Part shown: positions 7,452 to 45,966 of the stretch, piece after piece
Layout: every line of letters begins with the position of its first letter
Position numbering within the stretch: the stretch's first letter is position 1
Origin: Candidatus Latescibacterota bacterium
GTDB lineage: Bacteria; Latescibacterota; CBDCVA01
NCBI GenBank assembly: GCA_965222935.1
Contig: CBDCVA010000001.1
Location: 132,093-196,092 of the forward strand
Length of the DNA: 64,000 nucleotides
Direction: 5' to 3'
The notes under the pieces: model-generated
Databases searched by the model: none
Seen by the model: the letters and a program-made list of their open reading frames with translations, nothing else
Told to the model about the DNA's origin: nothing
Translations under genes and position numbers: made by a program

Positions 7452-7461
7452 GGCGATGGAA

Positions 7462-7528: not shown

Positions 7529-7538
7529 GGGGCGAAAG

Positions 7539-8477: not shown

Positions 8478-8528
8478 GATGAAAGGTCTGAGCCTTGGGT
8501 TGGGGTCTGTGGCCTTTCCGGTTCGGCG

Positions 8529-11017: not shown

Positions 11018-11021
11018 TCCG

Positions 11022-12242
11022 TTGCAAGCATCCAGCACGCTGACCCGGAGCGGCGCCGACCGGCACGCCCTCGTGCACCCGTTCGAGTTCGTCATCGATG
11101 CCGAGGATAGCGAGTCCGGCGCGCGCGCCGGCCGCCTGTGGACGCCCCGAGGCGTCGTGCCGACGCCCATGTTCATGCCCGTGGGCACCCAGGCATCGGT
11201 CAAGATGCTGAGCAACGAGGACCTCGAGGCCGCGGGCGCTCGGATCCTGCTCGCCAACGCCTATCACCTCTACCTGCGTCCGGGACCCGACCTCGTCGAG
11301 GAGGCCGGCGGCCTGGGCGGTTTCTCGGCGTGGAGGGGGCCGTATCTGACCGATTCCGGAGGGTATCAGGTCCTGAGTCTCGCCGACCGGGCGACCATCA
11401 CGGACGAGGGGGTCACGTTCCGCTCCCACCTCGACGGCACGACCCACCTCTTCACGCCCGAGGGCGTGATCGAGATCGAACGCGCGCTCGGCGCCGACAT
11501 CATCATGACCTTCGACCAGCCCGAGGCCTACCCCACCACTTGGGCTCGAGCGGAGGCATCGGCCTCGCGCACGATCGGCTGGGCGGAACGGGCCGTGCGC
11601 CATTTCGAGCGGACCCGGCCGCCGGGTGGGGTCCCCCAGGCGCTCTTCGGCATCGTGCAGGGCAGCGTCTACCCCGATCTGCGGCGCCGCTCGGCGCTGA
11701 GCCTGGCGGCCATGGACTTCCCCGGCTACGCCATCGGGGGCTGCGCCATCGGCGAGCCCAAGGGCGCCATGTGGAATGTCCTCGACGCGACGCTCCCGCA
11801 CCTGCCGCCCGACCGCCCGCGCTACCTCATGGGCGTCGGCTATCCCGAGGACCTCATTGCCGCCGTCGCCCGTGGCGTCGATCTGTTCGACTGCGTGATT
11901 CCCACGCGGAACGGCCGCAACGGTAGCGCGTATACTCATGGGGGGCGTATCATCGTGAAGAACGCTGGCGCCGCCCGAAATTTCGAAAGCCTCGACCCCG
12001 CGTGCGAGTGCCCGGCCTGCGGGGGCTATACGCAGGCGTACCTGCGCCACCTGTTTCAGGCTGGCGAGGTGCTGGGGCCGCGGCTTGTGTCGCTTCATAA
12101 CATCTGGTTTTTCATGGATCTGATGGCCCAGATGCGTGCTGCCATCACCGACGGCAGCTTCGGTGCCTGGCGGAGCGAATTCCTGGCGCGCTACGGTCGC
12201 TCGTCGGGGGAGGCCCGCCACCAGGAAGGAGCTTGGGGATGA
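11022..12242 (+). CDS. tgt: queuine tRNA-ribosyltransferase
   Basis: TGT fold with catalytic Asp region and the zinc site CxCxxC…H (CECPACGGY…H). Confidence 0.9.
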   Translation: MQASSTLTRSGADRHALVHPFEFVIDAEDSESGARAGRLWTPRGVVPTPMFMPVGTQASVKMLSNEDLEAAGARILLANAYHLYLRPGPDLVEEAGGLGGFSAWRGPYLTDSGGYQVLSLADRATITDEGVTFRSHLDGTTHLFTPEGVIEIERALGADIIMTFDQPEAYPTTWARAEASASRTIGWAERAVRHFERTRPPGGVPQALFGIVQGSVYPDLRRRSALSLAAMDFPGYAIGGCAIGEPKGAMWNVLDATLPHLPPDRPRYLMGVGYPEDLIAAVARGVDLFDCVIPTRNGRNGSAYTHGGRIIVKNAGAARNFESLDPACECPACGGYTQAYLRHLFQAGEVLGPRLVSLHNIWFFMDLMAQMRAAITDGSFGAWRSEFLARYGRSSGEARHQEGAWG

Positions 12243-17365: not shown

Positions 17366-17896
17366 GTGCTCGTCCATCGGCTGGGGGCCGGTGCGGCGGC
17401 CGCGCTCCTGGCTCTCTCGACGGTGGCTCAGTTGGCTTCGGCCCAGGTTGCCGAGAGCGACACCTCCCAAGCCCCCTCGCCGCGCGGAGCCCTTCTGCGC
17501 TCGCTGGCCTTGCCGGGCTGGGGCCAGCTTGCCAACGGTGAACGACTGAAGGCCGCGGCCATCGCGCTGAGCGAGATCGGCCTCACGACGGCAGTCGTCA
17601 TCCAGAACCGGCGCGTCGGGGACGCCTCCGGTGAGCGCAAAGAGAGCCTGCGCGGGAACCGTAACACGCTATTCTTCTGGCTGGTCGGCGCCGTCGTGTA
17701 CAGCGCCCTCGACGCCTACGTGGACGCTCATTTTCGGGATGTACGGTTTCCGGAGGGGGAGGCGACGCTCGAACTGGCGCCCTTCGCGGAGCTCACCCCA
17801 CCGCCGGTTCCCCTCCCCGCAAACGAGTGTGGGGCGCGGGGGACACTGCCCTCGGGCGGGCTCGGGATGGCGTTGGCCCTACGCCTTGGGTTCTAG
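17366..17896 (+). CDS. exported hypothetical protein (LPGWGQ motif, DUF5683-like)
   Basis: GTG start in frame immediately after the ROK stop. Signal peptide, then LALPGWGQL and a predicted TM segment. Confidence 0.4.
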   Translation: MLVHRLGAGAAAALLALSTVAQLASAQVAESDTSQAPSPRGALLRSLALPGWGQLANGERLKAAAIALSEIGLTTAVVIQNRRVGDASGERKESLRGNRNTLFFWLVGAVVYSALDAYVDAHFRDVRFPEGEATLELAPFAELTPPPVPLPANECGARGTLPSGGLGMALALRLGF

Positions 17897-19594
17897 GGTC
17901 TCCGGCGGTGCCTGCGGGAGAAGGCCCGGCTCGACGAAGAGCGTGCGCTCGCGGTGGACGCGCACCTGGCCCGGCGGGGCCTTGCGCGGCTTTTCCACGC
18001 GCCGCGCCTCGGTATAAATGACCGGGGCGGCCTTCGCTCCGCGCGCCTTGCTCCAGTAGGCGGCGAGCGCCGCCGCTTCGGTGATCGAACGTTTACTCGG
18101 CTCACCCTTCGCGCTATCTACCCGTAGCAGTACATGAGAGCCCGGCACGCCTTGCGCGTGGAACCAGAGGTCGTGCCTCGCCGCCAGCCGCAAAGACAGC
18201 GCATCGTTTTCAGCATCGTTGCGGCCCACGAGGACGAGGAAGCCCTCGCTGGTGCGGTACCGGCGCGCCGAGACCCTCGGCGCCGCGCGCGCCGATTTGC
18301 GGCGGGGTGTTGGTGCGGGCCGCTGGGCAGTGGTTTGGGGGACGACCCCGGATGCGTCCACAGGCACCGCCCGCGCTTGTTCCAGAGTGCGTTTCGCTTT
18401 CGCGAGCCGCTCTCGCAGGATGGGCGCTGCCCGCTGGGCCTTTCGGTGGCGCCTGAAGAGCTGCGCCGCGTTCTCCGCTGGCGAGAGATGGGGCAGAAGC
18501 GCAATCCGGATGCTTTGCGCGGAGTCCTCAAAGCTCGGAAGACGGACCTCGGATACGCCGCGTTTCACTTCATGGACATGAGCGAGCAGAAGTTCCGCCT
18601 GCGCCCTCAGGTCCTGCCCATCAATCGCCGCACACAGGTCCGCCTCGATCTTCCCGACGGCGCGCTCTGCCCTGCGGATTCGGGCGCGCCGTAGTGCCCC
18701 AAGGCGGTCGGCGGTGGCCGCCTGGAAAAGGTGAACATCCAGCGTCTCGACCGCTTCGGTGATCGAGGGCGCCCGACGCCTGCGTTCGGCGGGCAGGTGG
18801 TGCAGGTCGAGGATCGTGGCGGCCATAGGCGCGCCGTCCTCGTCGAGCACGACCGTCGGGGGGCCGAGGACGCTCCGGGGTCTGTTGTAAGCCTCAAAGG
18901 CGAGTGCATAGAGCCGTTCGATGGCGGCGTCGGCCAGAGCGCCGTGCGGTGATTCCGCTCCGATGCCCGCTCGATGGGCCAGCTCGCGTCCCAGGAGCTT
19001 TCCAGCGGCGGGCAAGAGGCGCGCGAGCGCCCTTTCGACCGTGGTGGCCGCGACCGATCGCCATGCGGAGATGAAGGCCGCCGGATCGGGCGCATCCATC
19101 GCTCTCCACCCGGGTCCCGGCGGCGGCGCGTAGACCAGGCCCCGAAGGAGCCGCCGGGTGCGTGAGCGCTCACCGGGCACGGGGCGGAGCACGTCCACGA
19201 TGCGGTCCGATGCGTCCAGGAGCAGCGCGTTGGCGCCCCGGGGGAGAAGCTCGACGACCAGCCGCGACGTTGGCTCCCCCTGGCGGCCTTCGGGGACCAG
19301 GTGCACGATGCGATCGGGACCCCGGCGCTCGACACGGGCTATCCGGGTCGGGGCCAGCCGCCCCGATGGCCAGGACCGCCCCTTCGGCAGGCCGGGGGCG
19401 GCGCCTCCCGCACCCGTTTTGCTCGTGAGATAAAGGGCGGGGGCGTTCGGGGCGCAGGAGATGACCAGCCGCGTCTCGCGGTGGCCGAGGAGCTCCAGGC
19501 GCCGGCCGTCGTACGCCCGTGCCTCGCGCACCCGCCAGCCCACAAGGGCCCGCTCAAGCTCGGCGATTAGCGCATCCAGCGTCCAGGTGTCCAT
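17879..19594 (-). CDS. RqcH/Rqc2-family NFACT protein (fibronectin-binding-A-like)
   Basis: N-terminal MDTWTLDALIAELERAL… NFACT-N domain. C-terminal DUF814/NFACT-R (…LWFHAQGVPGSHVLLR…). Only the C-terminal 572 codons of the 1,941-aa ORF look like coding sequence. Confidence 0.75.
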   Translation of the reverse strand: MDTWTLDALIAELERALVGWRVREARAYDGRRLELLGHRETRLVISCAPNAPALYLTSKTGAGGAAPGLPKGRSWPSGRLAPTRIARVERRGPDRIVHLVPEGRQGEPTSRLVVELLPRGANALLLDASDRIVDVLRPVPGERSRTRRLLRGLVYAPPPGPGWRAMDAPDPAAFISAWRSVAATTVERALARLLPAAGKLLGRELAHRAGIGAESPHGALADAAIERLYALAFEAYNRPRSVLGPPTVVLDEDGAPMAATILDLHHLPAERRRRAPSITEAVETLDVHLFQAATADRLGALRRARIRRAERAVGKIEADLCAAIDGQDLRAQAELLLAHVHEVKRGVSEVRLPSFEDSAQSIRIALLPHLSPAENAAQLFRRHRKAQRAAPILRERLAKAKRTLEQARAVPVDASGVVPQTTAQRPAPTPRRKSARAAPRVSARRYRTSEGFLVLVGRNDAENDALSLRLAARHDLWFHAQGVPGSHVLLRVDSAKGEPSKRSITEAAALAAYWSKARGAKAAPVIYTEARRVEKPRKAPPGQVRVHRERTLFVEPGLLPQAPPETLEPKA

Positions 19595-19756
19595 CCATCC
19601 CCCACCGCCCTGATGGGCGCCGTCGCCGGCGGGCCCCAGGGTTTCACGCGCGGAGCATCGTCCGCCTCCGCTCAAGCTGCGTCTTGACAGCGATGATGAG
19701 CGCCCCCAATATGGGGGTCTATCCCGACGAGACTCAAGCGAAGTTTTTCGACGATC

Positions 19757-22700
19757 GTGAGGCATGCACAGCGTCCAATGATGAGCGAGCCACCCTCCAT
19801 CCTGGCTGATTCGGCGCTGGCCTCCGTCATCGAGGCGGTCGTCGCTGCGGAGCCGACCCAGGCGCTTCTGGCCGGCCTCGAACGGGGCGAATCCACGGTG
19901 GCCGTCAAGGGCCTGGCGGGTTCGCTTGCGGCGTGTCTCGGACCGTCGCTCCTGGGGCGAGCGCCCGCGGTGCTGTTCGTCTGCAGTGATGAAGAGGCGG
20001 CCGGTCTGCTGCGCGACGACCTGGAGACGACCTGCGGACCCGAGCGCATCCGGTATTTTCCGCAGCCGGACATCGCCCCCTACGAGCCGCGTTCGCCGCT
20101 TCCCGCCCTGGTGAATATCAGGATCGAGGCGCTCGCAGCCCTGCGCAGCGATCCCCCGGTGGCCGTCGTGACCACCATCGGCGCGGCCACCAGGGCTTTG
20201 ATCCCGCCGTATCTCTTCGACCTGGCCACCCTCGGGCTGCGTGAAGGCGGCGAGGCCGATTTCGGTGAACTGCTGCGCGACCTGGCCGAGCGCGGCTTCG
20301 AGCGGGTGCCCCTGGTCGAGCGGCCGGGCGAGTTCGCCGTGCGCGGCGGGCTCATCGACATCTTCGGGTACGGCGCCCCCGATCCCGTGCGGATCGAGTT
20401 CTTCGGGGACGATGTCGAATCCATCCGCGCTTTTGATGTCTCCACCCAGCGTTCGAAGCACCCTCTCGATGCGGTGACACTGCCGCCGGCGACCGAGGTG
20501 CCCATCGGAGGCTGGCTCGAGGCCGATCAACTCGAGTGGCTCCAAGCACGGGCCGAGGAGGAGGGGCGCTCGCTGGAGCCCTTGATCGAGGCCGTGCGGT
20601 CGGGTCGTCCGCCAGCGGGAATCGAGCACTACGCGGGCGTTCTGGGGGGCGAACGCGCGACCCTTCGGGCCTATCTTCCACGAGACGCCATCGTGCTGCT
20701 CCCCGACCCCGAGGCCCTGAGAGACGAGATCGAGCGAAGGCTTGAGGTCGTGAGGGACGCGTACGCTGCCCGGGCAGCTTCCGGGGAGCTGTGTGTCGCG
20801 CCTCAGTGGGTCGCTCAAAGCTACGAAGAGTTCGCCACCGAGCTCGGGGCACATCGCGTCGTCGAATGCCTGCCTTTCGGTGCGCCCGGAGGTCGCGCAC
20901 CCTTCATCCCCCACGCCTCCGCGCACAAGCAGGGTGGGGGAGATCAAGAAGAGGGCCTTCGAGGGCCCCCGGAGGTCATCGCGTTCGGGGCGCGGAGCCA
21001 GCGCCACTACGAGGGGGACCTTCGGCTCCTGGGGCACGATCTGGCGCAGTTTGCGCAGGAGGGCCTGAGCACGACCGTTCTCGCCGAGACGCGCGGCGCG
21101 GCCGAACGCCTGTCGACCCTTCTGGACGAGCCTTTCGACGTCACCTTCGGTGAGGGAGCGACGCTGTCGGAGGGGTTCGTTTTTCCGGGCGCGGGTCTTG
21201 TTGCGGTCAACGACCATGAGATCTTCACCCGCTTCCGCCGCCTCCGGTCGGTCCGAAAGTTTGCGGAGGGCGCCCCGGTGGCCAGCGTCACGGCGCTGGG
21301 CAGGGGCGATTATGTGGTGCATGTGGACTACGGCATCGGCCGCTTTCTGGGCCTGGAACGCATCTCGATCCTGGGGACGGAGCACGACTGTCTGGCTCTG
21401 CTTTACAGGGATGACGACCGGGTCTTCGTGCCGGTGGAGCAACTGGGCCGCGTTCAAAAGCACACTTCGGGGGACGGCGGCCAGACGCCGGGCCTCTCGA
21501 AGCTGGGGACCGCCTCGTGGGAGCGGATCAAGGAGCGCGCAAAGCAGGGCATCCTGGACATGGCGGAGGAGCTGATCGGCCTCTACGCCGAGCGCAAAAC
21601 CCTGACGCGGCCGGCCTGGGGTCCCGATACGAGCCTTCAGTTCGAGTTCGACGCCGCCTTCCCTTACGAGGAGACGCGCGATCAGGGGCGGACCATCGCC
21701 GAGATCAAGCGCGATCTCGAAAGCGATGCGCCGATGGACAGGCTGGTGTGCGGAGACGTGGGCTACGGGAAGACCGAGGTGGCGATGCGCGCAGCCTTCA
21801 AGGTGGTCACCGAGGGGAAACAGGTCGCGCTGCTCGTCCCCACGACGATCCTGGCTCAGCAGCACTTCACGACCTTCGTGCAGCGCTTCGCGGACTGGCC
21901 GGTGACTGTGGAGATGGTGAGCCGCTTCCGGTCGCCGAAAGAGCAGAGGGAGACCCTCGCCCTGCTGGCCGAGGGGAAAGTGGACATCGTCATCGGCACG
22001 CACCGGCTGCTTTCGAAGGACGTGCGGTTCAAATCCCTGGGGCTCGTGGTCATCGACGAAGAGCACCGCTTCGGCGTCAGGCACAAGGAGAGGCTCAAGC
22101 AGATGCGGCGCCTCGTGGATGTGCTCTCGCTGACCGCCACGCCCATCCCGCGCACGCTGCACATGGGCCTCATGGGGGCGCGCGATATGTCCACCATCAT
22201 GACCCCGCCTCCCGACCGGCTGTCCGTCTACACCGAGGTGATCGGGTTCGACGAGGGGAAGATCGCCGAGGCGATCCTGCGGGAGATCGACCGGGAGGGC
22301 CAGGTCTACTTCGTTCACAACCGCGTGCAAACGATCGAGAAGATGGCGGCCCGGCTCGAAGAGCTCCTGCCCCAGGTTCGTTTCGCCATCGCCCACGGCC
22401 AGATGTCCGAGCGCGACCTGGAGCGGGTCATGCTGCGGTTCCTCGATGGCGACTACGACTGCCTGGTGGCGTCGGTGATCATCGAGGCGGGCCTGGATAT
22501 CCCCAACGCCAACACCCTGATCGTCAACCGCGCCGACCGGTTCGGCCTCGCCCAACTCTACCAGCTTCGGGGCCGCGTCGGCCGTTCCGACCGGCGCGCC
22601 TACGCTTATTTCGTCGTGCCGCCCCGTCGTTCGCTCCCGCGCCCGGCGCGGCGAAGGCTGCGCGCCATCGAGGAGTTCTGCGAGTTGGGCTCGGGGCTGG

Positions 22701-23341
22701 GCCTCGCCATGCGGGACCTGGAGATCCGCGGCGCGGGCAACATCCTGGGGGCCCAGCAGCACGGCTTCATCGCCCAGATCGGGTTTCACCTCTACACGCG
22801 GCTTCTGGACGAAGCGGTCATGGAGCTTCGCGGTCAAAAGCCAAAGCAGGAGCGTGAGCCCGAGATGCGCCTGGGGGCGAGCGGCTTCCTGCCCGATGCC
22901 TACGTGTCCGACCCCGATCAGAAGTTCTTGCTCTACGCGCGGCTGGCCGATTCGCACGATGCCGAGGCCGTCCGGGCCCTCACTGAAGAGGTGATCGATC
23001 GCTACGGCCGGATGCCGCCCGAGGCGCGGGCTCTGTTCGACGCCGCGGGCTGCCGCGCCGCAGCGATGGAGCTTGGCGCGGCCGAGGTGCATCTTGGCCA
23101 AGGCGTTCTCAGCCTGGGCTTCCCGACCGATGGGGAGCTCTCCCGCGAATGGGCCGAGGACCTGGTGCGGCGTTCGCCCGTGCCGCTGGAGTTCGATGTC
23201 GGGGGGCGGGCTTCCGATGGCGCGGAGGGCAGCATTCGAGTGCGCGCACGGCTCGCGGAGTCCGAGGGGGCCACCGAACTCGAAGCGGCAGCCGCCACCT
23301 TGAATGCCCTGGCCCAGGGGGAGGTACTCGCGGGGGTTTAG
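19757..23341 (+). CDS. mfd: transcription-repair coupling factor
   Basis: UvrB-homology N-terminus, RNAP-interacting domain, DEAD/DExH helicase motifs (GDVGYGKTEVA, DEEHRFG) and TRCF C-domain. About 1,190 aa. Confidence 0.95.
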   Translation: MRHAQRPMMSEPPSILADSALASVIEAVVAAEPTQALLAGLERGESTVAVKGLAGSLAACLGPSLLGRAPAVLFVCSDEEAAGLLRDDLETTCGPERIRYFPQPDIAPYEPRSPLPALVNIRIEALAALRSDPPVAVVTTIGAATRALIPPYLFDLATLGLREGGEADFGELLRDLAERGFERVPLVERPGEFAVRGGLIDIFGYGAPDPVRIEFFGDDVESIRAFDVSTQRSKHPLDAVTLPPATEVPIGGWLEADQLEWLQARAEEEGRSLEPLIEAVRSGRPPAGIEHYAGVLGGERATLRAYLPRDAIVLLPDPEALRDEIERRLEVVRDAYAARAASGELCVAPQWVAQSYEEFATELGAHRVVECLPFGAPGGRAPFIPHASAHKQGGGDQEEGLRGPPEVIAFGARSQRHYEGDLRLLGHDLAQFAQEGLSTTVLAETRGAAERLSTLLDEPFDVTFGEGATLSEGFVFPGAGLVAVNDHEIFTRFRRLRSVRKFAEGAPVASVTALGRGDYVVHVDYGIGRFLGLERISILGTEHDCLALLYRDDDRVFVPVEQLGRVQKHTSGDGGQTPGLSKLGTASWERIKERAKQGILDMAEELIGLYAERKTLTRPAWGPDTSLQFEFDAAFPYEETRDQGRTIAEIKRDLESDAPMDRLVCGDVGYGKTEVAMRAAFKVVTEGKQVALLVPTTILAQQHFTTFVQRFADWPVTVEMVSRFRSPKEQRETLALLAEGKVDIVIGTHRLLSKDVRFKSLGLVVIDEEHRFGVRHKERLKQMRRLVDVLSLTATPIPRTLHMGLMGARDMSTIMTPPPDRLSVYTEVIGFDEGKIAEAILREIDREGQVYFVHNRVQTIEKMAARLEELLPQVRFAIAHGQMSERDLERVMLRFLDGDYDCLVASVIIEAGLDIPNANTLIVNRADRFGLAQLYQLRGRVGRSDRRAYAYFVVPPRRSLPRPARRRLRAIEEFCELGSGLGLAMRDLEIRGAGNILGAQQHGFIAQIGFHLYTRLLDEAVMELRGQKPKQEREPEMRLGASGFLPDAYVSDPDQKFLLYARLADSHDAEAVRALTEEVIDRYGRMPPEARALFDAAGCRAAAMELGAAEVHLGQGVLSLGFPTDGELSREWAEDLVRRSPVPLEFDVGGRASDGAEGSIRVRARLAESEGATELEAAAATLNALAQGEVLAGV

Positions 23342-23856
23342 CGCTATTCCCGTCGGATGACCGCCGCCGCTTCGCCCTTCGCAGCCATGAGGCGTCCGTC
23401 TCAACGGGGCACTCGGGGGCATCGGCCTATCCGAACCTTCACCGGTGGGGCAGCACGCCGCCTTCGCTCGATCCGCGAACAGCCGGACCTCGGTGGCGGT
23501 GCCGCCACTTGGGCCTTGCTTCACGCGCCCCTCTCTGATACTTTGGGCGGTGCGGTGTACCGCCTGGGGATGGCGTTCCCGGCAGCCGCTCTCGACGAGG
23601 GCGGTCAAAAGAGGCATGATGAGGTCGATGGGGATACCGCACGAGATGACGGGAACGATGGCGGCCAAGGGAGCGTCTCCTTTCTCCGGTCTGCCGTTGG
23701 TCATGCTCGGAGCCGAAGATAAGCAATTGACGGCGTTCTGTCAGTGCCGCTTTTGTGACACTAAGGGGAGGATGGCCAGGCGTCCGCGAGCTCGCTCGCC
23801 CCTCGAAGGGGGACGGGCCCGTGACCGCGCCTGGAACTTTCTGGAAAGGGTGTAGC

Positions 23857-28622: not shown

Positions 28623-29465
28623 ATGGCCCTTGTGATGCGATGGATCGGGCGGCTCGCTTTTGGGTCCGGGCCGATCGTGGTGGTTTTCGCTGCTCTGGCT
28701 GGCGCCTACGGGCTGGAGGTGGCTCAGGTGTCGCGTGGGGCCGAATTGCGCCGGCGCTGCGAGGGTGTCCGGCTCGAAGCCTTTCTCGCACCGGGGTTCT
28801 CCAAGACGCGAAGCGATGAGCTTGTCGCAGCGCTCGACCGTCTTGAAGGGGTGAGCGCCGTCGAATACATCGGACAGGAGAGCGCCCGGGAGGCGTTTGT
28901 CGCCCTGTTCGGGGAGGGATTGCTGGATCCCCGCGCGCCCAATCCGCTTCCACCGTCGGTGGTGGTGCAGCCGGAGTTGAACTGGGTGACCTCCGAGCGC
29001 GTCGCGCAGCTCGCGACGCAGCTCTCGGACCTCGAAGGCGTCGAAGCCGTGGACTATCCCGCGGCATGGCTCGCGACGGTGGACGCCGAAGCGAGGTGGA
29101 GCAGTCGGACGCTACGCGGTGCATGGGTGGGTGCGGCGTTGGCTCTCGTGATGGCCACAACGCTCGTGGTCTGGCGACGTACCACGCGCCGCGCGACGGG
29201 CCTGCGTACGCTTCGGATGGCGGGAGTGCCGCTCTGGTGGTGCGGCCTGGGCGCCCTGGCCGGTGCGCTGGGAAGCGCCATCGTTGCCGCAACGCTCTTT
29301 CTCGGATTACGGATCGGGTTGGTCGAACCCTTCCTGGCCGGGGTCTGGCCCGGTGTCGTCTTCCCAGACGGGGCCTCCGGGGCCTCCCTGTGCGCGTTCG
29401 GAGCGGGTGGCGTTCTGACCTTGACGTGGGTCGCGCTGGTCCGCGCGCTCAGGAGCGCACCATGA
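28623..29465 (+). CDS. FtsX-like permease
   Basis: TM1, large periplasmic loop, three C-terminal TM helices. Adjacent to the FtsE-like gene. Confidence 0.65.
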   Translation: MALVMRWIGRLAFGSGPIVVVFAALAGAYGLEVAQVSRGAELRRRCEGVRLEAFLAPGFSKTRSDELVAALDRLEGVSAVEYIGQESAREAFVALFGEGLLDPRAPNPLPPSVVVQPELNWVTSERVAQLATQLSDLEGVEAVDYPAAWLATVDAEARWSSRTLRGAWVGAALALVMATTLVVWRRTTRRATGLRTLRMAGVPLWWCGLGALAGALGSAIVAATLFLGLRIGLVEPFLAGVWPGVVFPDGASGASLCAFGAGGVLTLTWVALVRALRSAP

Positions 29466-30650
29466 GGCGGCTCCGGTGGCTTGTGCCAGTCCTCCTCGCA
29501 CTCAGTGCGTCTGGAGGCACCCTCGCCCTGGCGGAGCCGGGGGATCTCGCGGCCCAGCGCGCGGAGCTCGAGGCCATCGAAGCGGAGCTTGAAGCGGCGC
29601 GCTCGCGTGCATCGGAACTCGCGGGGCAGGAGCGGAAACTTGGGCGGCGGACGGGCAAGCTGGCGAACGAGATCAAGGCCACCGCGCGTGTCATCCGCCG
29701 CCTTGATAACCGGCGCAAGGCGTTGGACCGGCGCCTTGCGCGCACGAAAAGCCGCCTTGCGCACACGACGCGGGACTTCAAGCGGTGGCTTGGGAGCTAC
29801 GTCGATGGGTTGCGCACCCTCTATCGCCGCGTTCGGGTCTACGCCAGGGATGCTATGGCCGGTCCTGTGGAGTACCAGCGCGCCGCGCGAGGGCGACGAT
29901 ACCTCATTGCAATTGCGGCGCAGGATCGTGCTGCGCTGGAGGGGACGCGCAACCGACTGGCCGCGCTGAAGCGGGATAGCCGATCCCTGACCCGCGAGCG
30001 GCGCCGTACGGCTAAGGCCGTCAAGGTGAAGGCAGTGACGCGCTCACGCCTGAAGCGCGACCATCAGGTCACCAGGCAGGAGCTGGCGTCCGTTGCCAGC
30101 GAGCGAGCCCTCTCCGAGGCGTCCCTCGAGGAGCTGGAATCCGCGCGAGCCGAGGCGGAAGCTCGCCTCATGGAGTACATCGCGGGTTTCCAGCGCGACG
30201 AGCGGGCCTCGCGCCGACGCCCCGATCTTCACCTGGCGCCCCCGCCGGAGGGGTACGGAACGTTCGCCCAGCGGCGTGGGAGGCTGGCCTGGCCTGCGTT
30301 CGGGCAGGTCATAGGGCGGTTCGGTCGCACGCGCGACCCGGAATCGGGGACATGGACATTCAACCGCGGCGTCGATCTCGCCGTCGCCCCCGGAACCTCG
30401 GTTCGGGCCATCGGACCGGGCCATGTCATTCTGCGCAACTGGTTTCGGGGATATGGCAGCTTCGTTCTGATCCACCACGGCGCGGGCTACTTCACGCTGT
30501 ATGCGGGTCTCAGCCGGGTTCTGGGTCGCCGAGGGCGATGCCGTAGAGGGCGGGGCGCCGATCGGCGTGTGCGACGACATGCTGCACGTGGAGGTCCTGC
30601 ACGATCAGGAACCGCTGGACCCCGTGTCGTGGCTGGGGGCAGCCCGATGA
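29462..30650 (+). CDS. EnvC-like coiled-coil protein with a degenerate LytM/M23 domain, reading frame broken by a +1 shift
   Basis: Signal peptide, then long coiled coil, then an M23 domain with HxxxD replaced by NRGVD and HLH replaced by GL. The M23 C-terminus (…LVAEGDAVEGGAPIGVCDDMLHVEVLHDQEPLDPVSWL) continues in the +1 frame from about 30525, with an extra G in the GGG run at 30523-30525. Confidence 0.6.
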
Positions 30651-32287
30651 TGAGGGTCCGGGGCCTCATCGCCTGCCTTCTGCTCGCCTGCGGCGGACCC
30701 TCGGGCGGGCCGCCGGAAGTCCTCTTTCGCGTGCGGCTCAGTGCCGACCCACCCTCGCTCGATCCGATTCACGCCGCTGACGCGATCTCAGGGGCGGTGG
30801 TGCACCATCTCTTCGACGGTCTGGTCGCCGCCGATCCCGCCACCGGTGCGGTCCAGCCCGCTTTGGCGGAGAGGTTCGAGCCTCTTGAGAGCGGCCGCGC
30901 CTGGCGCTTTCATCTGAGGCCGGATGTCCGCTTTCATCATGGCCGGCGGGTGACGGCCGAGGACGTCCGCTTCTCCTTTGAGCGCGTCCTAGATCCCGAG
31001 AGCCAGTGCGAGCGCCCGTGGGTGCTGACCCCCCTGAGAGGCGCCTCGGCTTTCCGGGAAGGCCGCGCCGACCGGGTCGCCGGCATCCGCGTCGAGGACG
31101 AGCGCACCGTGGTGCTCGAGATCGAGGAGCCCTTCACACCTTTCCTCGCCCAACTCACCATGGCACCGGCCAGCATCGTCCCCCGCGAGCTCGTGGCGCG
31201 CGATCCACAAGCCTTCTCGGCCGCGCCTGTGGGCTCGGGTCCCTTTCGTTTCGTTCGCTGGGCTCGGGATGTCGAGATCGAGCTTGAGGCGTTCGACGGC
31301 GCGTGGGACGGGCGGCCGGGGATCGACCGCCTGCGCTTCGTCATCCTGCCCAACGTGAATGTCGCGTACCAGGCCTTTCGCGCGGGAGAGATCGAGCTCC
31401 TGAACCAGTTGCCCACGGGCGCCTTGAGCGAAGCGCGGCGCGAGCGCCCCCAAGGCCTGAGGGTATGGACGGTTCTCTCGACGCGCTACCTGGGGATGAA
31501 CCTGGCCGGTCCGCCCTTCAGCGACAACCGGCCATTGAGACAGGCCCTGAATTACGCGGTCAACCGCGAGGCGCTCTGCCGCGACGTCCTCCAGAATCTG
31601 GCCGAGCCGGCTTCGGGCGTTGTGCCCTCCGCGCTCTTACCCGTGCGACCCGAAGGCTACGCCTACGACCCCGATCGTGCCCGGACGCTCCTGGTCCAAG
31701 CGGGTTTCCCCGAGGGGGAAGGCTTGCCGGAGCTGGAGCTCTGGTACAATGCGAGCCAGGAAGAAGCCCGCATCTGGCAGGTGGTCGCCTCCGATCTGGC
31801 AGCCATCGGCGTCCACACGCGGCTTGTGGCCCTCGAATGGGGCGCTTTTCTATCAGCCATTCGCGCTGGGCGGGCACCGCTTTTCCGAGGGAGCTGGGTC
31901 GGGGACTACACCGACCCGCACAACTTCCTCTTCGTTCTGCTCCACAGCGGCAATGCGGGTCCTGATGGCAACTACGCGCGTTTCGGTGATCCGGAGTTCG
32001 ACCGGCTGGTGGAGGCGGCGGGTTCCGAATCCGACCCGGTGCGGCGGCGCGAGCTTTACGTTAAGGCGGAGGCCAGAGCGGTGGCCGAGGCGCCCTGGGT
32101 CTTCCTCTTTCATCCCAGGGATGAAGTGCTGATCGCGCCGGGCTGGGCTGAGCTGGAGCTATCCATCCTGGGCGACTGGGCCATACCCCTCGAACGCGTG
32201 CGTGCCTCGGCGGAAGCTCAAAAAGACGCCTTTGAACCCCAGTCGAGCGAAGCGGGGAGAGCGCGAGATGAAGCGGGAGGTCAGTGA
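30647..32287 (+). CDS. ABC transporter substrate-binding lipoprotein, family 5 (Opp/Dpp-like)
   Basis: Lipobox LLLACGG, SBP_bac_5 fold. Paralog of the 61364-62950 gene. ATGA start/stop overlap with the upstream gene. Confidence 0.8.
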   Translation: MMRVRGLIACLLLACGGPSGGPPEVLFRVRLSADPPSLDPIHAADAISGAVVHHLFDGLVAADPATGAVQPALAERFEPLESGRAWRFHLRPDVRFHHGRRVTAEDVRFSFERVLDPESQCERPWVLTPLRGASAFREGRADRVAGIRVEDERTVVLEIEEPFTPFLAQLTMAPASIVPRELVARDPQAFSAAPVGSGPFRFVRWARDVEIELEAFDGAWDGRPGIDRLRFVILPNVNVAYQAFRAGEIELLNQLPTGALSEARRERPQGLRVWTVLSTRYLGMNLAGPPFSDNRPLRQALNYAVNREALCRDVLQNLAEPASGVVPSALLPVRPEGYAYDPDRARTLLVQAGFPEGEGLPELELWYNASQEEARIWQVVASDLAAIGVHTRLVALEWGAFLSAIRAGRAPLFRGSWVGDYTDPHNFLFVLLHSGNAGPDGNYARFGDPEFDRLVEAAGSESDPVRRRELYVKAEARAVAEAPWVFLFHPRDEVLIAPGWAELELSILGDWAIPLERVRASAEAQKDAFEPQSSEAGRARDEAGGQ

Positions 32288-38719: not shown

Positions 38720-39637
38720 TCAGTCGATTCCGCGCCACTCCCGACCGATGCGATCATAGCGCTCATGCAGATCGGCCACCGTTTCATCCGCCAACGGTAG
38801 CTGCGTCTCGACCGCGTCGATATTGGCGAGCATGTGCTCGGGATCGCGGGTGCCGACGATCGCGGTGTGCATGTCCTCGTGTGCGAGGACAAAACCCAGG
38901 GCGAGCGCGATGGGGTCCTTCGGGGCTTCCGCGATCGGCCCCGGTTCCAGGAGCGCCCTCGCGCGTTTCAAGCGTTCGAGGTTCGTGCCGGATAGCCCCG
39001 CGTCGCCGGGGGAGACCGCCTTGCCCCAGGCAGCGTTGGCGATCGGCCTCTTGGCGATAAGCCCCATTCCCCGCTCTCTGGCCCGCTCGAATATGCTGTA
39101 CCGGGGCCCCTGGTCGACCAGGTTGAACGCGATCTGAAGCGTGTCGAACAGGCCGCTCTCGATGGCCCATTCGGCCTCCTCGTTCTCGCCGCTGTAGCCG
39201 ACGAACCGGGTCTTCCCCGCCTCCTTGGCGTCCATCACCGCCTCGATCACATCGTCGGGCGTCGGCGCCGAGATGTCGTAGGCGTGGACCTGCACGAGGT
39301 CGACGCGGTCCGTCCTCAGCTTCTTCAGGCTTAAATCGATGCCCCGCCGCACCGTCTTGCCAGTCCACGGCTGCCCCGATGAACCGGTGGAGACGTGGCC
39401 GGCCTTGGTGGCCAGGACGAACTCATCGCGGCGATGGCCCACCGTCAAGCCGATCAACTCTTCGCTGTTGGCGTAGCACTCCGCGGTATCGAGGAAGTTG
39501 ATGCCGGCGTCCAGGGCCGCGCCGAGGATACGGCCCGCCCGCCGGGGCTCATCGATGGAGAATGAGCCTATCTCCACGAGGCCTGCGCCGAGGCGGCTGA
39601 CGCGAAGACCCGTCTTACCCAGCGTCGTCATCTCCAT
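38720..39637 (-). CDS. aldo/keto reductase
   Basis: AKR fold: …LDTAECY… catalytic tetrad region and …GYSGENEE…. About 305 aa. Confidence 0.85.
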   Translation of the reverse strand: MEMTTLGKTGLRVSRLGAGLVEIGSFSIDEPRRAGRILGAALDAGINFLDTAECYANSEELIGLTVGHRRDEFVLATKAGHVSTGSSGQPWTGKTVRRGIDLSLKKLRTDRVDLVQVHAYDISAPTPDDVIEAVMDAKEAGKTRFVGYSGENEEAEWAIESGLFDTLQIAFNLVDQGPRYSIFERARERGMGLIAKRPIANAAWGKAVSPGDAGLSGTNLERLKRARALLEPGPIAEAPKDPIALALGFVLAHEDMHTAIVGTRDPEHMLANIDAVETQLPLADETVADLHERYDRIGREWRGID

Positions 39638-39758
39638 GCGATGTCTCCTTTTAATCGCGCCCCTGGTCGAGGGCGAGAAGAACGTCAAGACCGGATGCCA
39701 TCCATTGCCCCCAGGTATTCAGGAACCTACATTCAGTATACACAGGGAGGAGGGGGAC

Positions 39759-40025
39759 ATGGACATCTTCGTTACAGGCGTCATCGAGCGGCAAAAGGAT
39801 GACTGGCTCGCATTCTGCCCCGAACTGGAGATCAACACCTTCGGGGCTACCGAAGAAGATGCACGGGAAAGCCTTGAGGAGGCCATCATCGGGTATCTGC
39901 AAACGGCTGAGGCCAGTAATAGACTCGAAGAACTACGCCATGTGTTAGAGACGCGCTCGGCCCAGCAATTGTCCTTCAAGAAGGACGTGGAGGAAGATGA
40001 GTGGCTTGCGTCTCCAGTAGGTTAA
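39759..40025 (+). CDS. hicB: HicB-family antitoxin
   Basis: …VIERQKDDWLAFCPELEINTFGATEEDARESLEEAI… fits HicB_lk_antitox. GGAGGAGGGGG ribosome-binding site. About 55% GC. Confidence 0.7.
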   Translation: MDIFVTGVIERQKDDWLAFCPELEINTFGATEEDARESLEEAIIGYLQTAEASNRLEELRHVLETRSAQQLSFKKDVEEDEWLASPVG

Positions 40026-40050
40026 CACGACCGATGGGCTGGGAAATTTT

Positions 40051-40296
40051 GTGCCTCATCTCCCGAATCTGACGTGGAAGCAGTTCGTAAAGTTGGCAGA
40101 AATCAAGGGCTATGTGTTTGCGAGAGTCAGAGGAAGCCACGTCATCTATGAGAATCCCGAGGTTCCGTTGCCCGAGGGTATCATTCCCATTCCACGAAAG
40201 AAAAACATCCCCAAAGACACACGCCGCGCCTTACTACGACAACTTGGCGTCAGCCCCGACGATGTACAAATCTTCTTAGAAACCAAGCAAATCTAA
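40051..40296 (+). CDS. hicA: HicA-family mRNA interferase toxin
   Basis: YcfA/HicA pattern …KQFVKLAEIKGYVFARVRGSHVIYEN…PIPRKKNIPKDTRRALLRQLGV. About 47% GC. Confidence 0.75.
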   Translation: MPHLPNLTWKQFVKLAEIKGYVFARVRGSHVIYENPEVPLPEGIIPIPRKKNIPKDTRRALLRQLGVSPDDVQIFLETKQI

Positions 40297-40424
40297 CGAA
40301 GCGGGACAAGTCCATAAGGCCCTAGATTGCAGTAGGGCTGTCATGTAGACATTCAATCAGCCACACCTTCGCCTTACTCCAACTCCCCCAACCACAGGTA
40401 CCCTTTTAGAAAGTCGTGATCGGC

Positions 40425-43400
40425 TCAGGGCTGGGCTTCCTGCGCGGCACGTCCGGCTCCCTTCAGCAGACCGGACCTCTGGCGCTGCGGCGCCGGTGGC
40501 TTTCGCATCGCGTCGGGCGCGTCGGGCAGTTCATCGGCCCCGAAGCAGGGACCGGAGATGACGGCGTCCAGGAGCCTCGCCTGTTCTGGATAACCCGTTA
40601 GAGTCGCCTCCAGCACCCAGAGCAGTTCGAGCAGCTCCGTCGTGAACTGGCTCGTCCAGCGCTCGGGGCGAGTGTCGTCCAGCGGCGAGGATTTCCTGCC
40701 CGCGCCCCTCTTCATCCGGTACTTGAGCCACGACCGCACCACCTTGAGGCCCGAGACCTCGAACTCGAAGACTTCCGGGGCGACGGGCTCGAACGCGCCC
40801 TCGCCCACATGGAGCGTTCGCGTCCCGTCGTTATAGTCGAATGCTTCGGGGTAGCCATCGGGATCGCCGGGGACGGGCTTGACGCACCTGGCCGCGCCGC
40901 GCGGGACGCGGCTTCGCTGTTCGCCCTCGGGGACGAAGCGCTCGCCGTACGTGTGGAGATGCAGCAGACGCGCGCCCGCGCTTCGCACCGCCTCGAACAG
41001 GGTGGCGTCCTTCGTGATAGGAACGCGCAACTCGCGCGACCCCAGTTCCTTCGCATAGCGGGCGGTGAAGGCCGGCTGCGCCAGCGCGCCGTAGATGTAG
41101 GCCAGGATATCCTCCGGCGTCACCTTGCGCTCGTAGGCCGCGCCGAGCAGGTCGAGCAGGCCGGGGAGGACGTTGACCTCCGTCGCGTCGGCGGTGCGGT
41201 AGAGGGGTATAGAGCTTCCAGCACGACCTGAGAAATAGTTACGGTCGGGAATGAAGGCGCAGGCGGTTAGACTTGGCCCACCCGATATTGCCTGTGTGAG
41301 AATCGTCGTCAGATATATCTGTCTCTCGCCGTGAGCGCGCCATAGATCGGGGCGGAGAAGGTCGCCCAGCCTGCTGTCGGCGAACATCCACTGCCGGTCG
41401 AATGAACGATACGCGTAACGCTCGATGCGGGGAATCGCAGCGTTACGGGGCAACTGATCAAGAGGCGCCTCGGCCTCTTCGCCATCCTTGAGCGGCGGGT
41501 ACTTGCGTGCTGTTTTGCGGTCGCGCGTTTCTTTGAAGGCGGCGGCCCTGTCCGCGGAGGCCAACAGCGTGCGCCAACGCGCCGCCAATGTTTCGGGATC
41601 GGGGCAAATCGGCCAAGTTCGTTGAAACTGAACGCCTGAATGTTGCCACGGCATGAGGTCGCTCAGAAGAGGCAAGTCGAAATAGTCGCCCACCCCCGCC
41701 GGGCGGAAGGGGGCCTGCCAGTCATCGGGGCAGTCCTCCCAATCGACCGATGCAAACCCGTAGATCGCATCAAGCGCCGCGAGCTTGTCACCGCGCGTTC
41801 CCTCGATGCGGGCATAGTGAACGGCGGCGGGCTCAGTCTCTCTCGCTTCACCATATCGTACGGCTACGGCGATAGCCACCGGGGTAAGGATGGCGAAGAC
41901 GTTGTCGCTCTTGCGCGAACCGCGCCCCTCTCCGCCGAGGTCGATGATCCAGATTTGGTCGCACAGGCGGCGCATGTGTTCACGCATCCCGCTAAAAGCG
42001 TCGCCATCGAGGTAGCTCGACGCGCTGATGAAGCTGACGACGCCCGGCCCCGAGGCCTTCGCGTGCTCGAAGACCTTCCACAGCGCCTAGCGCCAGAAGT
42101 AGACGTAAAGGTTGTAGAGGTTTCTGACGTCGCCGCCGTGTCCGGCCTTGACGGCGGGGTCCCGGAAATCGCCGAAGATCGCGTGTGAGGGCCCGCCGTC
42201 GTCGTCCCAGCGGACCCAGCCGCCGGTGAGGGCCCTGTTGTCGCCGCTGGCGGTCTCGTGGCGGTCGTAGGGCGGGTTGCCCACGCAGACGATCACGGGG
42301 ACCTCGCTCTTGACCTGGAGCGCCCTGGTGTGCTGCTCGGCGATGGGTTCGAGGTAGAAAGACAGCGCGAGCGGTTGAGCGTGGGGGCTTTCGAGCGTGT
42401 CGGTCAGGTAGACGTGCGTGCCGTCCTGGGGGAGCGACGCGCCACGATCGCGCAGGGCGCGGCTGACGCGCAGTTCGGTCACGGCGTAGGGGCCGACCAT
42501 ATGCTCGAAGCCGTAGAGGTTGGCGGCCAGCGCGGTGGCCTTGCCCGGCACGGCTCCCGGACCCTGCTCGTCCTCGACCCGGCTGAGGGCGTGCTCGATG
42601 ACGCCGAGGAGGTAGGTTCCCGTGCCGGAAGCCGGATCGAGCGTGACGACGTCGGGATCGGCGAATCCCAGGGGCCTGCTGATGCGGTTCACGAGCAGAT
42701 CGTCAATGAGGCGGACCTGGGCGCGGACGACCTCGACGGGGGTGTAGTAGACCCCGGCATCCTTACGCAGCCTGGGGTCGTAGGCGGCGAGAAAGTCCTC
42801 GTAGAAATAAAGCCAGGGGTCCTCGGGGGCCCTGAGCGAATCGGTCGGGACCTCGGCGACCACGCGCATGAGCAGATCGAGGGAGGCGGAGATTTCGGCC
42901 CGAGCTCTGGGGTCGGTCAGGACCTGAAGGGCGCGCGCGAGCAGGTTGTGCTCAGCGGCCAGGGCCGTTTCGGCGTGGGGGAGGGTCAGCGGGTTGGCCC
43001 CCTCGCTGCGGGCCAGCAGCAGGGCGAAAGTGACGGTTTGCGCGTAGGCATCGGCGAACTGCTCGTCGCGCGCGTCCGGGAAAAGGAGCTGCCGCCAGTC
43101 CCTTGCGAGTTGGACGAGGGGCGATTGCGGTTCGCGGAGGGCGTCGGTGACATCGTCGCGGAGCAGGCGGCACAACGGTGCGAGCAGGCGGGCGAAGCCC
43201 TCGAGATCGAGGCGGCCCTCGCGGTCGTAGGGCAGAATGGGATTCCATGAGAAGAAATCGCGCAACAGACGTTCCACCGCGCCCGCGTCTTCGAGGGCGG
43301 CGGCCTTCTTGCCGTCGGAGGCGATGTCGCCACGGAGATGGACGATCCTGCCCACCGGCTTGCCATCGCGATAGAGCGCCCATTCGTTGCCGTCCGTGTA

Positions 43401-43742
43401 GAGGAGGTTGGGGATGGCCGAGAAGCGCTTCCACTGATCGCGGTTGTGGCCGGTGAAGCGCCTGGCATTGACTCCGACTCCGGGGGCCTTGAGCTCGACG
43501 TAACCCGCGAGCAGGCCGTTGAGATGGGCGGCAAAATCGGGGCGGCCCAGGCGGTCGGGGAGCCTGGCCTCGCCCGTGCAGACGGCGTTCCAGCCGAGGG
43601 CGCGGGCGGCGTCAGCCATGAGGTTCTCGAAGGGGCCGCGCAACTGGTCTTCGGGCGCGCCCTGGGTCAGTTGCGTCATCTTGGCCGTGACCGCCTGGCC
43701 GAAGGACTCCAAAGCCTTGTGTATCAGGTTGTTGGGCATCAT
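40425..43742 (-). pseudogene. MmeI-like single-chain type IIL/IIG restriction-modification enzyme (PD-ExK nuclease + N6-adenine MTase + TRD) interrupted by one in-frame TAG
   Basis: N-terminal …RPDFAAHLNGLLAGYVELKAPG… (D-x-ExK like MmeI). MTase motif I DPASGTGTYL and motif IV VGNPPYD. The frame is continuous across the TAG at 42087-42089 (…NLYVYFWR*ALWKVFEHAKASGPGVVSFISASSYLDGDAFSGMREH…), giving about 1,105 codons. Confidence 0.7.
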
Positions 43743-43769
43743 GGGATTCCAGCGGATTTTCCAGGCCTA

Positions 43770-44669
43770 TTACGCATCGACGCCGCCTCGTCCATGGGCC
43801 GCCCACAGCCGTTGCAGGGGCGCATAGCTCAGGAATTCAATGCCCTCCTCCTCCGCGATAGCCGCTACCCGTTCGGACGTCATGAACTCGAGGGACGACC
43901 GCCTGCCCTCGGGCGTGGCGCTGACGCCTTCCACCAGCGGGCTGGACATGATGGCTTCGAGCTCCCCGGTGACGATCGCGGGATGCATCGCCCACTCGCT
44001 GAGGCCGGAGGGTAGCGCCCGCAGCGCCTTCGTCAAGATGGACACCTTCCGGCCGGGATCGATTCGGCCGCAATCGGTCACCCTGTGATCGATGGCGGGC
44101 AATCCCCGCGCCCGTAGCTTCTCAACGCCGTCCTTGCGCCCGACCCTCAAGGCCATTCCATATTCGATGGCGAGGCCGACGGTCATGTCAAAAAGGCTCT
44201 CACGGAGCTCATGGGTGCCGTAGTGGCTATCGAGGTGCGTGGGTTGCAAGCCGGTGGCGAGGACCGCTTCGATCTGGGCCCTGTACTCTCGTTCCACTTC
44301 GGCGGGGTCCGCATGCATCAGGAGCTCGGCGTATCGGTTATCGAGGGGGAAATAGCCCGATTCATCGAGTAGCGACGGGACCCTGTCGAAGGGTGTCAAG
44401 GGCTTCCATCGGTAGTTGACGTATTCGCTCACTAGGGTGAGGTGCACGCCGAAAGGGATGCGGGGGTTTTCCTTGAGGAGATGGATGGCGTGGCCGCTCC
44501 ACGGGGCCGGCATCATCAACGAACAGGAGGTGGCGAGGCCGTCCTCGATGGCCCGCAGGGTGCCCTCGTTGTGGGCGTGACAGAGGCCGAAATCGTCCGT
44601 GCTAAGGATCAATAGTCGCGCATCGGGTGGATATCCGAGCCATGCGCAGGCGCCCCGATTGCCCGGCAT
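43770..44669 (-). CDS. YdjC/ChbG-family carbohydrate deacetylase
   Basis: …LLILSTDDFGL…H…HLTL… metal-binding pattern of the YdjC family. Confidence 0.7.
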   Translation of the reverse strand: MPGNRGACAWLGYPPDARLLILSTDDFGLCHAHNEGTLRAIEDGLATSCSLMMPAPWSGHAIHLLKENPRIPFGVHLTLVSEYVNYRWKPLTPFDRVPSLLDESGYFPLDNRYAELLMHADPAEVEREYRAQIEAVLATGLQPTHLDSHYGTHELRESLFDMTVGLAIEYGMALRVGRKDGVEKLRARGLPAIDHRVTDCGRIDPGRKVSILTKALRALPSGLSEWAMHPAIVTGELEAIMSSPLVEGVSATPEGRRSSLEFMTSERVAAIAEEEGIEFLSYAPLQRLWAAHGRGGVDA

Positions 44670-44737
44670 TGGGCGTTTCCTTTCCCCGTAAGGCTATGGG
44701 TCGAGCCCGATCTCCCGCTCCGGGGGCAGGGTTCGAT

Positions 44738-45966
44738 TCATAGAGCGCGCCGCACGGCATCGAACGCCTCGCCGCACACGCTCAATGTGCGTTCCAGATC
44801 GGCGTCGGTGTGGGCTGCGCTCACAAACCAGTGGTGACGCGGATGGAGCAGCACCCCGCCTCGGGTGACCTCGGTGTAGAAGACCCTTCTGGCCTCTTCG
44901 GAGCGCTCTTCGGGTTGGTATCCGAACCTCAGGTCGGGCATGGGCGGCACACCGTGGCCCGGGCCTCCACGCGGGCGTCCTGGGCCAGCCCGTTGAGTCC
45001 GTCCAGAAGCCGCTGGCCTATGCGCCAGATATGGGGTATGACCTCGCCCTCCTTGAGCCTTTGGATGGTGGCCACGGCGGCGGCCATGGCGGGCGAATTG
45101 GTGTAGAAGGTAGACGACAGATGGGTGCGATCCAGAAAACACTGCATCACATCGGCTCGGCCGGCGAGCACCGAGATGCAATAGCCGTTGGAGATAGCCT
45201 TGCTGAATGTCGCCAGGTCCGGGGTGATGCGATAGTACTCCTGGGCGCCTCCCAGCGCCATGCGGAACCCCGACCGCATCTCGTCCAGAATGAATAGCGC
45301 GCCATGATGATGGGCCAGCGCCTTCGCGCCCTCCAGGAAGCCCGGCTGCGGCGCCTCCGCCTCGAGGGGCATCATGATGATGCAGGCCACTTGATCCTTG
45401 TTCCGGTTCAGGACGGCTTCCAAGGAGTCCAGATTGTTGTACTCGAAGGTGAGGATGTCATCCCGCACGTGGCGTGGGATCCCGGCGTCGTAAGGATTGC
45501 ACCAGTCGTGCCAGCCGTTGTAGCCCCAGCGCACGACTTTGTCCCGCCGGGTCCAGATTCGCGCCAAGCGCACGGCGGCTGAAGTGGCATCTGAACCGGC
45601 CTTGAAGAAGTGTACCAACTCGGCGCACGGGATGATCTCCACCAGGAGCTGCGCCAAGGTGTTCTGGACGGGTCTCGTCATCGCGAAGGCGAAGCCCTGC
45701 CGGATCTCACGAATGGCCGCCTCGTCAACCTCAGGGTCCCGATGGCCCAATACCACGATGCCGAGCCCCAGCATCCAGTCCAGGAACTTGTTGCCGTCCA
45801 CATCCCACAGGTAGGCCCCTTCCCCTCTGGAGACGAACAGGGGATACTCGCCCTCGATGAACAGTTCGGGGCGTTTGGACTGGGTCGTTCCGCCGGCATA
45901 GACCTTGCACGCCTCGGCATAGAGGCGCTCCGATTGCACGAGGCTCAGCGGCGCGCGTTCGCTCAT
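44738..45966 (-). CDS. class III (GSA-aminomutase-like) aminotransferase, reading frame broken by a 1-nt indel
   Basis: N-terminal 360 aa in one frame (…GGTTQSKRPELF…). The conserved C-terminus (…PDLRFGYQPEERSEEARRVFYTEVTRGGVLLHP…FVSAAHTDADLERTL…) is in another frame. The switch is at the CCCGGG run 44958-44963. Confidence 0.65.

Follow-up and report, generated by a model that had tools for sequence, protein, structure and literature searches.

A probable recent nonsense mutation in a solitary DrdV-like Type IIL restriction-modification gene of a Candidatus Latescibacterota bacterium

The stretch analysed here, called the window, comprises 64,000 nucleotides of contig CBDCVA010000001.1 (GenBank assembly GCA_965222935.1, positions 132,093 to 196,092 of the forward strand) from a Candidatus Latescibacterota bacterium. 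Its minus strand carries a restriction-modification (RM) gene with a single in-frame stop codon. A reading made from the letters alone (the sequence-only reading) had joined two adjacent minus-strand open reading frames (ORFs) at this place into one gene parted by an amber codon, and translation bore this out. One frame holds both ORFs, 42087..43742 (551 aa) and 40425..41987 (520 aa), and nucleotides 40425-43742 translate into 1,106 codons, the sole internal stop being TAG at 42087-42089 in the context …NLYNLYVYFWR(stop)ALWKVFEH…. The next ATG after this codon is at 41987; the 33 codons in between stay open and, as had been expected of a continuing protein, they align to homologues without gaps. 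Exact look-ups of the C-terminal ORF with either a 520-aa or a 516-aa start returned no record and gave no trace of the downstream half in other assemblies. Scanning 39600-45000 for promoters and terminators gave nothing exceeding the shuffled expectation. The features are collected in Table 1.

Table 1. Features of the RM locus and its surroundings (window coordinates)
Feature	Position	Strand	Basis or remark
DrdV-like Type IIL/IIG RM pseudogene, whole (1,105 codons plus one internal TAG)	40425..43742	-	Reading frame; PADLOC REase_MTase_IIG PDLC03631; full-length homologues
Lesion: TAG at codon 552 for an invariant Trp (TGG), in the helix after NPPY (motif V, …YVYFWR[W]ALWKVF…)	42087..42089	-	Homologues, orthologue, Logan assemblies
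PD-(D/E)XK nuclease catalytic motif (P68-D69…E83-L-K85)	43488..43541	-	N-terminal nuclease domain, ~aa 1-165
Methyltransferase motif I, DPASGTG, SAM binding	42618..42638	-	aa 369-375
Methyltransferase motif IV, NPPY, catalytic	42267..42278	-	aa 489-492
C-terminal target-recognition domain, Type_ISP_C	40623..41660	-	Pfam, aa 695-1040
Recognition-domain core, recombination cassette	41187..41630	-	Codons 705-852; comparison with contig L082
Strain-variable cassette: RM pseudogene, HicA gene and most of a HicB-like gene	39809..43769	.	Homology of contigs L083-L086 stops at 43770 and resumes at 39808
HicA toxin gene, cassette neighbour and no part of the enzyme	40051..40296	+	PF07927 HicA_toxin, 9.6e-13; convergent with the RM gene

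The joined frame, in agreement with the single chain of about 1,105 aa reconstructed earlier, is matched from end to end by one PADLOC Type IIG profile (1187 bits, residues 8-1097 on profile positions 5-1075 of 1086). It is also matched by more than 5,700 database proteins, of which the 120 best homologues are single chains of ~1,080-1,170 aa with 67-76% identity, found in many phyla. Judged by sequence comparison, these end-to-end matches far exceed chance. No homologous locus of more than 74% identity was found in a scan of GTDB representatives. With the stop bridged, Pfam places N6_Mtase at aa 313-495 and Type_ISP_C over its entire profile (1-342/342, E = 1.9e-75). Motif I precedes motif IV, which is the gamma-class order. 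D69, E83, K85, DPxxGxG and NPPY are invariant throughout the family, and the window gene has every one of them. The three motifs quoted in the sequence-only reading (PD-ExK, DPASGTG and NPPY) were thus found where it had placed them, and its architecture of a nuclease, a gamma-class N6-adenine methyltransferase and a C-terminal recognition region, as in Type IIL/IIG enzymes, was supported by Pfam, PADLOC and the motifs. In the AlphaFold model of the 551-aa N-terminal product, residues 1-165 are predicted at pLDDT 80-90 with an alpha-beta-beta-beta-alpha-beta core, while the methyltransferase part is of low confidence (pLDDT ~40-60). Motif conservation and this predicted fold identify the N-terminus as a PD-(D/E)XK nuclease.

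Neighbour conservation was followed over 79 genomic loci of the family, and the largest neighbour cluster was present in just 6 of them. The enzyme is therefore solitary, with no companion methylase, specificity subunit or helicase. In the window, the neighbours of the RM gene are YdjC and HicA, and the window shares no synteny with the 79 loci. Membership in BREX (PglX), DISARM or MADS was rejected: PADLOC returned RM models only, the neighbours are not conserved, and NCBIfam gave nothing meaningful on the joined frame, the MAD2 score (22.7 bits) being below the cut-off of 720. On these comparisons, the locus can be described as a solitary one-polypeptide Type IIL/IIG RM gene of a DrdV-like lineage.

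The earlier label 'MmeI-like' had to be given up. The recognition domain is of the Type_ISP_C kind; Pfam models named after MmeI gave no match to the window protein at E<=0.01 or to three family members at E<=10, and MmeI was absent from the matches in the Protein Data Bank (PDB), both in the search with the single protein (E<=0.01) and in that with a family profile of 30 sequences (E<=10). Pfam holds MmeI_* models, and MmeI is deposited in the PDB as 5HR4. The profile comparison proposed with the label came out divided, as the N-terminal region did not match an MmeI nuclease while the RM assignment survived on the PD-(D/E)XK motif and the fold. The MmeI family is delimited by full-length BLAST similarity at E < 1e-20 with the recognition domain included (Morgan et al. 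2009, PMC2731913), and on the Pfam and PDB searches the window protein falls outside it.

The likeness to the MmeI family (MmeI, NmeAIII, DraRI, ApyPI; Type IIL) is of another kind. These enzymes are also single polypeptides with no companion methylase and no conserved neighbours. The PD-ExK residues occupy nearly equal positions (D70/E80/K82 as numbered in the MmeI literature and D69/E83/K85 in the window protein) when compared by numbering. The natural history is alike too, NmeAIII having had a premature TAG that was repaired to TGG. The difference is that sequence membership is not detectable, and the window recognition domain is Type_ISP_C rather than of the MmeI type. The window enzyme thus appears MmeI-like in architecture and way of working, not in family membership.

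The PDB matches of the window protein were LlaGI, DrdV and LlaBIII, which are its closest relatives of solved structure. With the family profile, E-values reached 2.7e-38 for DrdV, 1e-33 for LlaBIII and 8e-33 for LlaGI, and the alignment to DrdV extended to position 939. LlaGI (PDB 5FFJ) and LlaBIII (4XQK) are Type ISP enzymes whose methyltransferase and recognition module is homologous to that of the window protein (E 1e-24 to 1e-33), but they carry a RecA-like ATPase/translocase between nuclease and methylase and reach ~1,400-1,580 aa. The PDB alignments cover the methylase and recognition part only (LlaGI 684-1027 and 1230-1340; LlaBIII 848-1181). Type ISP membership was rejected, since the alignments miss the translocase, Pfam found no helicase or ATPase in the window protein or in three family members, and the chain has 1,105 aa against 1,406-1,578 aa. 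Therefore, cleavage licensed by translocation and collision is not applicable to an enzyme of this size lacking a helicase.

DrdV (PDB 7LO5/7LVV), a Type IIL RM enzyme of Deinococcus, has the same layout without a helicase. According to its authors, DrdV and the Type ISP enzymes have methylase and recognition domains of common origin, and DrdV, having no translocase, is classed as Type IIL. The window enzyme was therefore filed as DrdV-like Type IIL/IIG. The relationship is distant: structure-based identity is only ~19%, the nuclease domain does not align by sequence, and the window protein is longer by ~75 aa. It belongs to a separate, very large and unusually conserved subfamily (67-76% identity across phyla). 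BpuSI (Type IIG; PDB 3S1S) gave no significant sequence match, and its recognition domain differs.

By analogy with DrdV and MmeI, the intact enzyme would read an asymmetric site through its recognition domain, methylate one adenine there, marking self DNA, and cut unmodified DNA at a fixed distance once several sites are brought together. The domain order is an N-terminal PD-(D/E)XK nuclease, a helical linker, a gamma-class N6-adenine methyltransferase and a Type ISP-like recognition domain. The helix that follows NPPY (motif V) contains the stop, upstream of the nearly invariant strand …VVSFISASSYLDGDAF…. Translation would end at codon 552 within the methyltransferase fold, past NPPY but short of the core strand VVSFISASSY. 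A product of 551 aa would be missing the remaining Rossmann fold (half of the methyltransferase domain) and the entire recognition domain, and a product re-initiated at Met585 would miss the 33 intervening residues. From this truncation together with the loss of the recognition domain we infer that methylation and site-directed cleavage have been lost together. Because the two activities go together, enzymes of this kind can be lost without killing the host.

The column of the stop is occupied by Trp in 120/120 homologues (…YFWRWALWK…), and it aligns with a Trp in both LlaGI (IRWA) and DrdV (LRWA). An orthologue (P0122), found by cluster look-up on contig L082, is intact, has 1,106 aa and carries Trp at the same position. 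This contig is 92% identical to the window in nucleotides across 49121-40365, and both share the gene order GFO/IDH/MocA, aminotransferase, YdjC, RM gene. The ancestral codon was therefore TGG, and the lesion is a single G-to-A transition. On L082 itself, at 4478-5376, YdjC is split into pieces of 79 and 225 aa, and the contig coverage is 3x; the split may be a low-coverage long-read indel error, so that single-base details of L082 call for caution.

Two Logan contigs, assembled from different runs (ERR13602196 and ERR13605531), encode the truncated 551-aa product without any difference. Each matches the window at 100% identity over ~6.86 kb, TAG included, and their ends lie at 42011-42015. 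These ends, 72-76 nt beyond the TAG, were tentatively attributed to graph branching in the highly conserved stretch coding for SASSYLDGDAF. Since the TAG is present in two separately assembled read sets, it is not a random sequencing error. It could still be supposed that an error of sequencing or assembly hides a true TGG and an active enzyme; a difference of one base is the smallest error possible, and the base is known from assemblies, not from reads. The agreement of the two runs makes this very unlikely, as does the context GGCGCTAGGCGC, which has no homopolymer and is an atypical setting for an error. Confirmed natural disruptions of such a kind have also been documented (Morgan et al. 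2009, PMC2731913).

Another possibility is that the gene works in its split form, either by read-through or suppression of UAG or by assembly of the 551-aa N-terminal fragment with a re-initiated 520-aa C-terminal fragment into an active enzyme. Both ORFs are in frame, and some near-cognate read-through of UAG, at a low level, takes place in bacteria. However, TAG normally terminates 12 other window genes of at least 150 aa, and the only tRNA in the window is Ser(TGA), an Rfam search of the window giving nothing beyond it. Codon reassignment or suppression was rejected within the window on these grounds, TAG being an ordinary terminator there and a suppressor tRNA being absent. Furthermore, the site is occupied by Trp in every one of the 120 homologues and in the orthologue, each a single chain, and no split version recurs among the 79 loci. 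The break falls inside the methyltransferase core, a start at Met585 omits 33 residues including the nearly invariant strand SFISASSYLDGDAF, and the truncated methyltransferase part is modelled at pLDDT ~40-60. A functional split enzyme is accordingly most improbable.

The rest of the gene is in good order. It contains no frameshift and no second stop. The 120 homologues share 174 invariant columns, and the window departs from two of them, at the stop itself and with A497T; in a leave-one-out test, 56 of the 120 intact homologues depart at one invariant column or more. Against L082, codons 1-551 have a Nei-Gojobori dN/dS of 0.25, and the codons after the stop, recognition core excepted, one of 0.22, compared with 0.21 (GFO) and 0.33 (TonB) in the neighbouring genes on either side; dS is ~0.13-0.19 in the RM gene and flanks alike. 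When changes at conserved sites were polarised with the 120 outgroups, 22 were derived in the window lineage and 16 in the sister, a difference that is not significant. Relaxed selection after the stop was thus not detectable by dN/dS or by polarised changes. As the stop is the sole lesion and dN/dS resembles that of the flanks on both sides of it, the knockout is judged recent.

Taken together, the evidence makes it very probable that a solitary DrdV-like Type IIL enzyme, encoded in a variable defence islet, has genuinely and recently been knocked out by a TGG-to-TAG change. Among the three origins that the sequence-only reading had left side by side for the lesion, a recent inactivating nonsense mutation is favoured by the Trp column, the two assemblies and the intact remainder of the gene. 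Several points weigh against this interpretation. ERR13602196 and ERR13605531 may be the source data of the window assembly, in which case they are independent runs rather than independent populations, and the base at 42088 is known from assemblies alone, not from read counts. Low-level natural read-through of UAG may occur. A slight excess of window-specific substitutions follows the stop (12 vs 6), which could mean that the lesion is not extremely young. Finally, cleavage, single-strand methylation and the recognition site are proposed by homology to DrdV at ~20% identity.

The RM gene belongs to a region that differs between close relatives. In contigs L083, L084, L085 and L086 the flanks are 93-97% identical to the window and the RM gene is absent; L083 comes from a 1.4-Mb contig and L085 from a 4.2-Mb contig. 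Judging by names of the type ctg…_Nx_l (ERZ25067264, ERZ25072076 and ERZ26167216), the related contigs appear to stem from long-read assembly. Homology breaks off at the stop codon of the YdjC gene (43770). At this site, between the YdjC gene and an aldo/keto reductase gene, the cassette of the window takes 3,961 nt, whereas the four relatives have ~0.8 kb with a DUF7387 gene of 104 aa (L083 10901-11711). The RM gene is found at the site in the window, in L082 and in L087, where its N-terminal part is preserved and the contig ends ahead of the stop site. The presence of the gene in L082 with dS like that of the flanks indicates that it predates the split from that strain. The long residence suggested earlier from host-like GC is therefore upheld with respect to this one sister strain, but the cassette is missing from four close relatives.

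The other end of the cassette is variable as well. A segment of 409 nt (39956-40364), with the HicA gene and the 3' end of the HicB-like gene, is missing from L082, which keeps just a HicB-like ORF with a different C-terminus. No direct repeat was found at the junctions of this segment, and the HicB-like ORF at 39759-40025 had no significant Pfam match.

A further difference between the two alleles of the RM gene is confined to the recognition core. Between the window and L082, this core is ~45% identical in amino acids with a dS of 2.4, and the rest of the protein ~95% identical with a dS of 0.15. By this contrast, the core is regarded as exchanged by recombination between the window and L082 lineages. 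GC at third codon positions (GC3) of the core is 0.655 and 0.673 in the two alleles vs ~0.86 in the remaining gene, pointing in both to specificity cassettes that are exchangeable and of foreign composition. Relatives of both cores are found at ~69-77% identity. Neither the equally low GC3 nor these relatives resolve the direction of the swap, and the possible outgroup L087 stops short of the recognition domain.

Disruption of such genes is not confined to the window. In the family, ~6 of the ~71 assessable copies among the 79 loci (~8%) are disrupted: L024, L074 and L075 have frameshifts in the RM gene, L063 a 1.16-kb insertion and L064 an insertion together with a stop at Trp785, and L031 is truncated. 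In the MmeI family, NmeAIII was found disrupted by a premature TAG and was restored with TGG, and DraRI and ApyPI were similarly repaired, so that three genes were reactivated (Morgan et al. 2009, PMC2731913). The same authors suggested that populations hold active as well as inactive-but-repairable forms. The window case is a fresh example of this known pattern in another Type IIL lineage, the fate being common and documented.

The suggestion of these authors leads to an alternative in which the nonsense allele is a reversible OFF state, that is, one of two standing states of the population and an adaptive polymorphism rather than decay. It would be kept since a reversion of one base restores defence and since an inactive copy can swap its recognition cassette safely. 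The otherwise pristine gene would fit such a state, as would the intact sister copy in L082 with its different recognition core, the strains that have no cassette at all, and the fact that the same idea was put forward for NmeAIII, DraRI and ApyPI. However, pristine sequence is equally expected after any very recent loss. The lesion is a plain point mutation, with no repeat tract or other device raising the reversion rate, and a look-up in 15 billion catalogued proteins did not turn up the exact TGG revertant of the allele. As stated above, neither GC3 nor the relatives of either core settle which way the cassette was swapped. A maintained OFF state is therefore considered unlikely. It is likewise doubtful that the knockout and the swap are linked, the nonsense mutation rescuing the cell from self-restriction after a change of specificity or giving a safe inactive state for it. 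If this were true, the locus would illustrate in nature the inactive-but-repairable reservoir put forward by Morgan et al. for Type IIL enzymes.

Some family loci show rearrangements of other kinds. Two Brocadiaceae metagenome-assembled genomes (MAGs; L071 10237-10961 and L072 10237-10961) and an uncultured bacterium (L064 10327-10997) have an in-frame insertion of ~0.7 kb at the place of window aa 631-636. The insertion encodes a Y1 (HUH) transposase of the IS200/RAYT type (Pfam Y1_Tnp, 33.7 bits vs a cut-off of 23) and is bounded on both sides by the same hairpin-forming repeats, CACGGGCTTCCRGCCCGTG and CATGGGCAGGATGCCCATG, translated as GTGF(R/Q)PVGNHGQDAHAT. In L071 and L072 the frame of RM gene plus transposase, ~1,360 codons, is open throughout. 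In an alphaproteobacterial MAG (OZ241350.1), L030 carries two full-length RM genes in tandem (4880-8161 and 8381-11659), both ~66-67% identical to the window protein.

Among other window genes, those for a TonB-dependent receptor and SurA point to a diderm bacterium of high GC, and a trans-sulfuration enzyme has homologues at 100% and 86% identity, after which identity falls to 68% (Nitrospinota, Alphaproteobacteria, Tectomicrobia). Two ORFs elsewhere in the window deserve mention. On the plus strand, 29066-32287 is a single ORF of 1,073 aa with Peptidase_M23 and SBP_bac_5 domains. In L083 and L085 these domains belong to two overlapping genes in different frames, and the C-terminal 42 aa encoded by their M23 gene correspond to window sequence near 30515-30650 read in another frame. 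The likely cause is either a frameshift that fused the two genes in the window or a false indel in one assembly. The minus-strand ORF 17879-23704 (1,941 aa) has NFACT_N and NFACT-R in its last ~570 residues only, and the first ~1,370 residues had no Pfam match at E<=0.001.

The significance of the case beyond annotation is small. For annotation, it means that the locus should be entered as one DrdV-like Type IIL pseudogene instead of an 'N-6 DNA methylase' plus a hypothetical protein, and outside the MmeI family. The subfamily to which it belongs is very large (>5,700 relatives) and, it appears, uncharacterised. With TAG changed to TGG, the enzyme should be expressible and its specificity readable from the methylome, as for NmeAIII. 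With respect to the organism, the defence islet is in flux within one species-level group: some strains lack the RM gene, one has it intact with a different recognition cassette, and in the window it is freshly knocked out.

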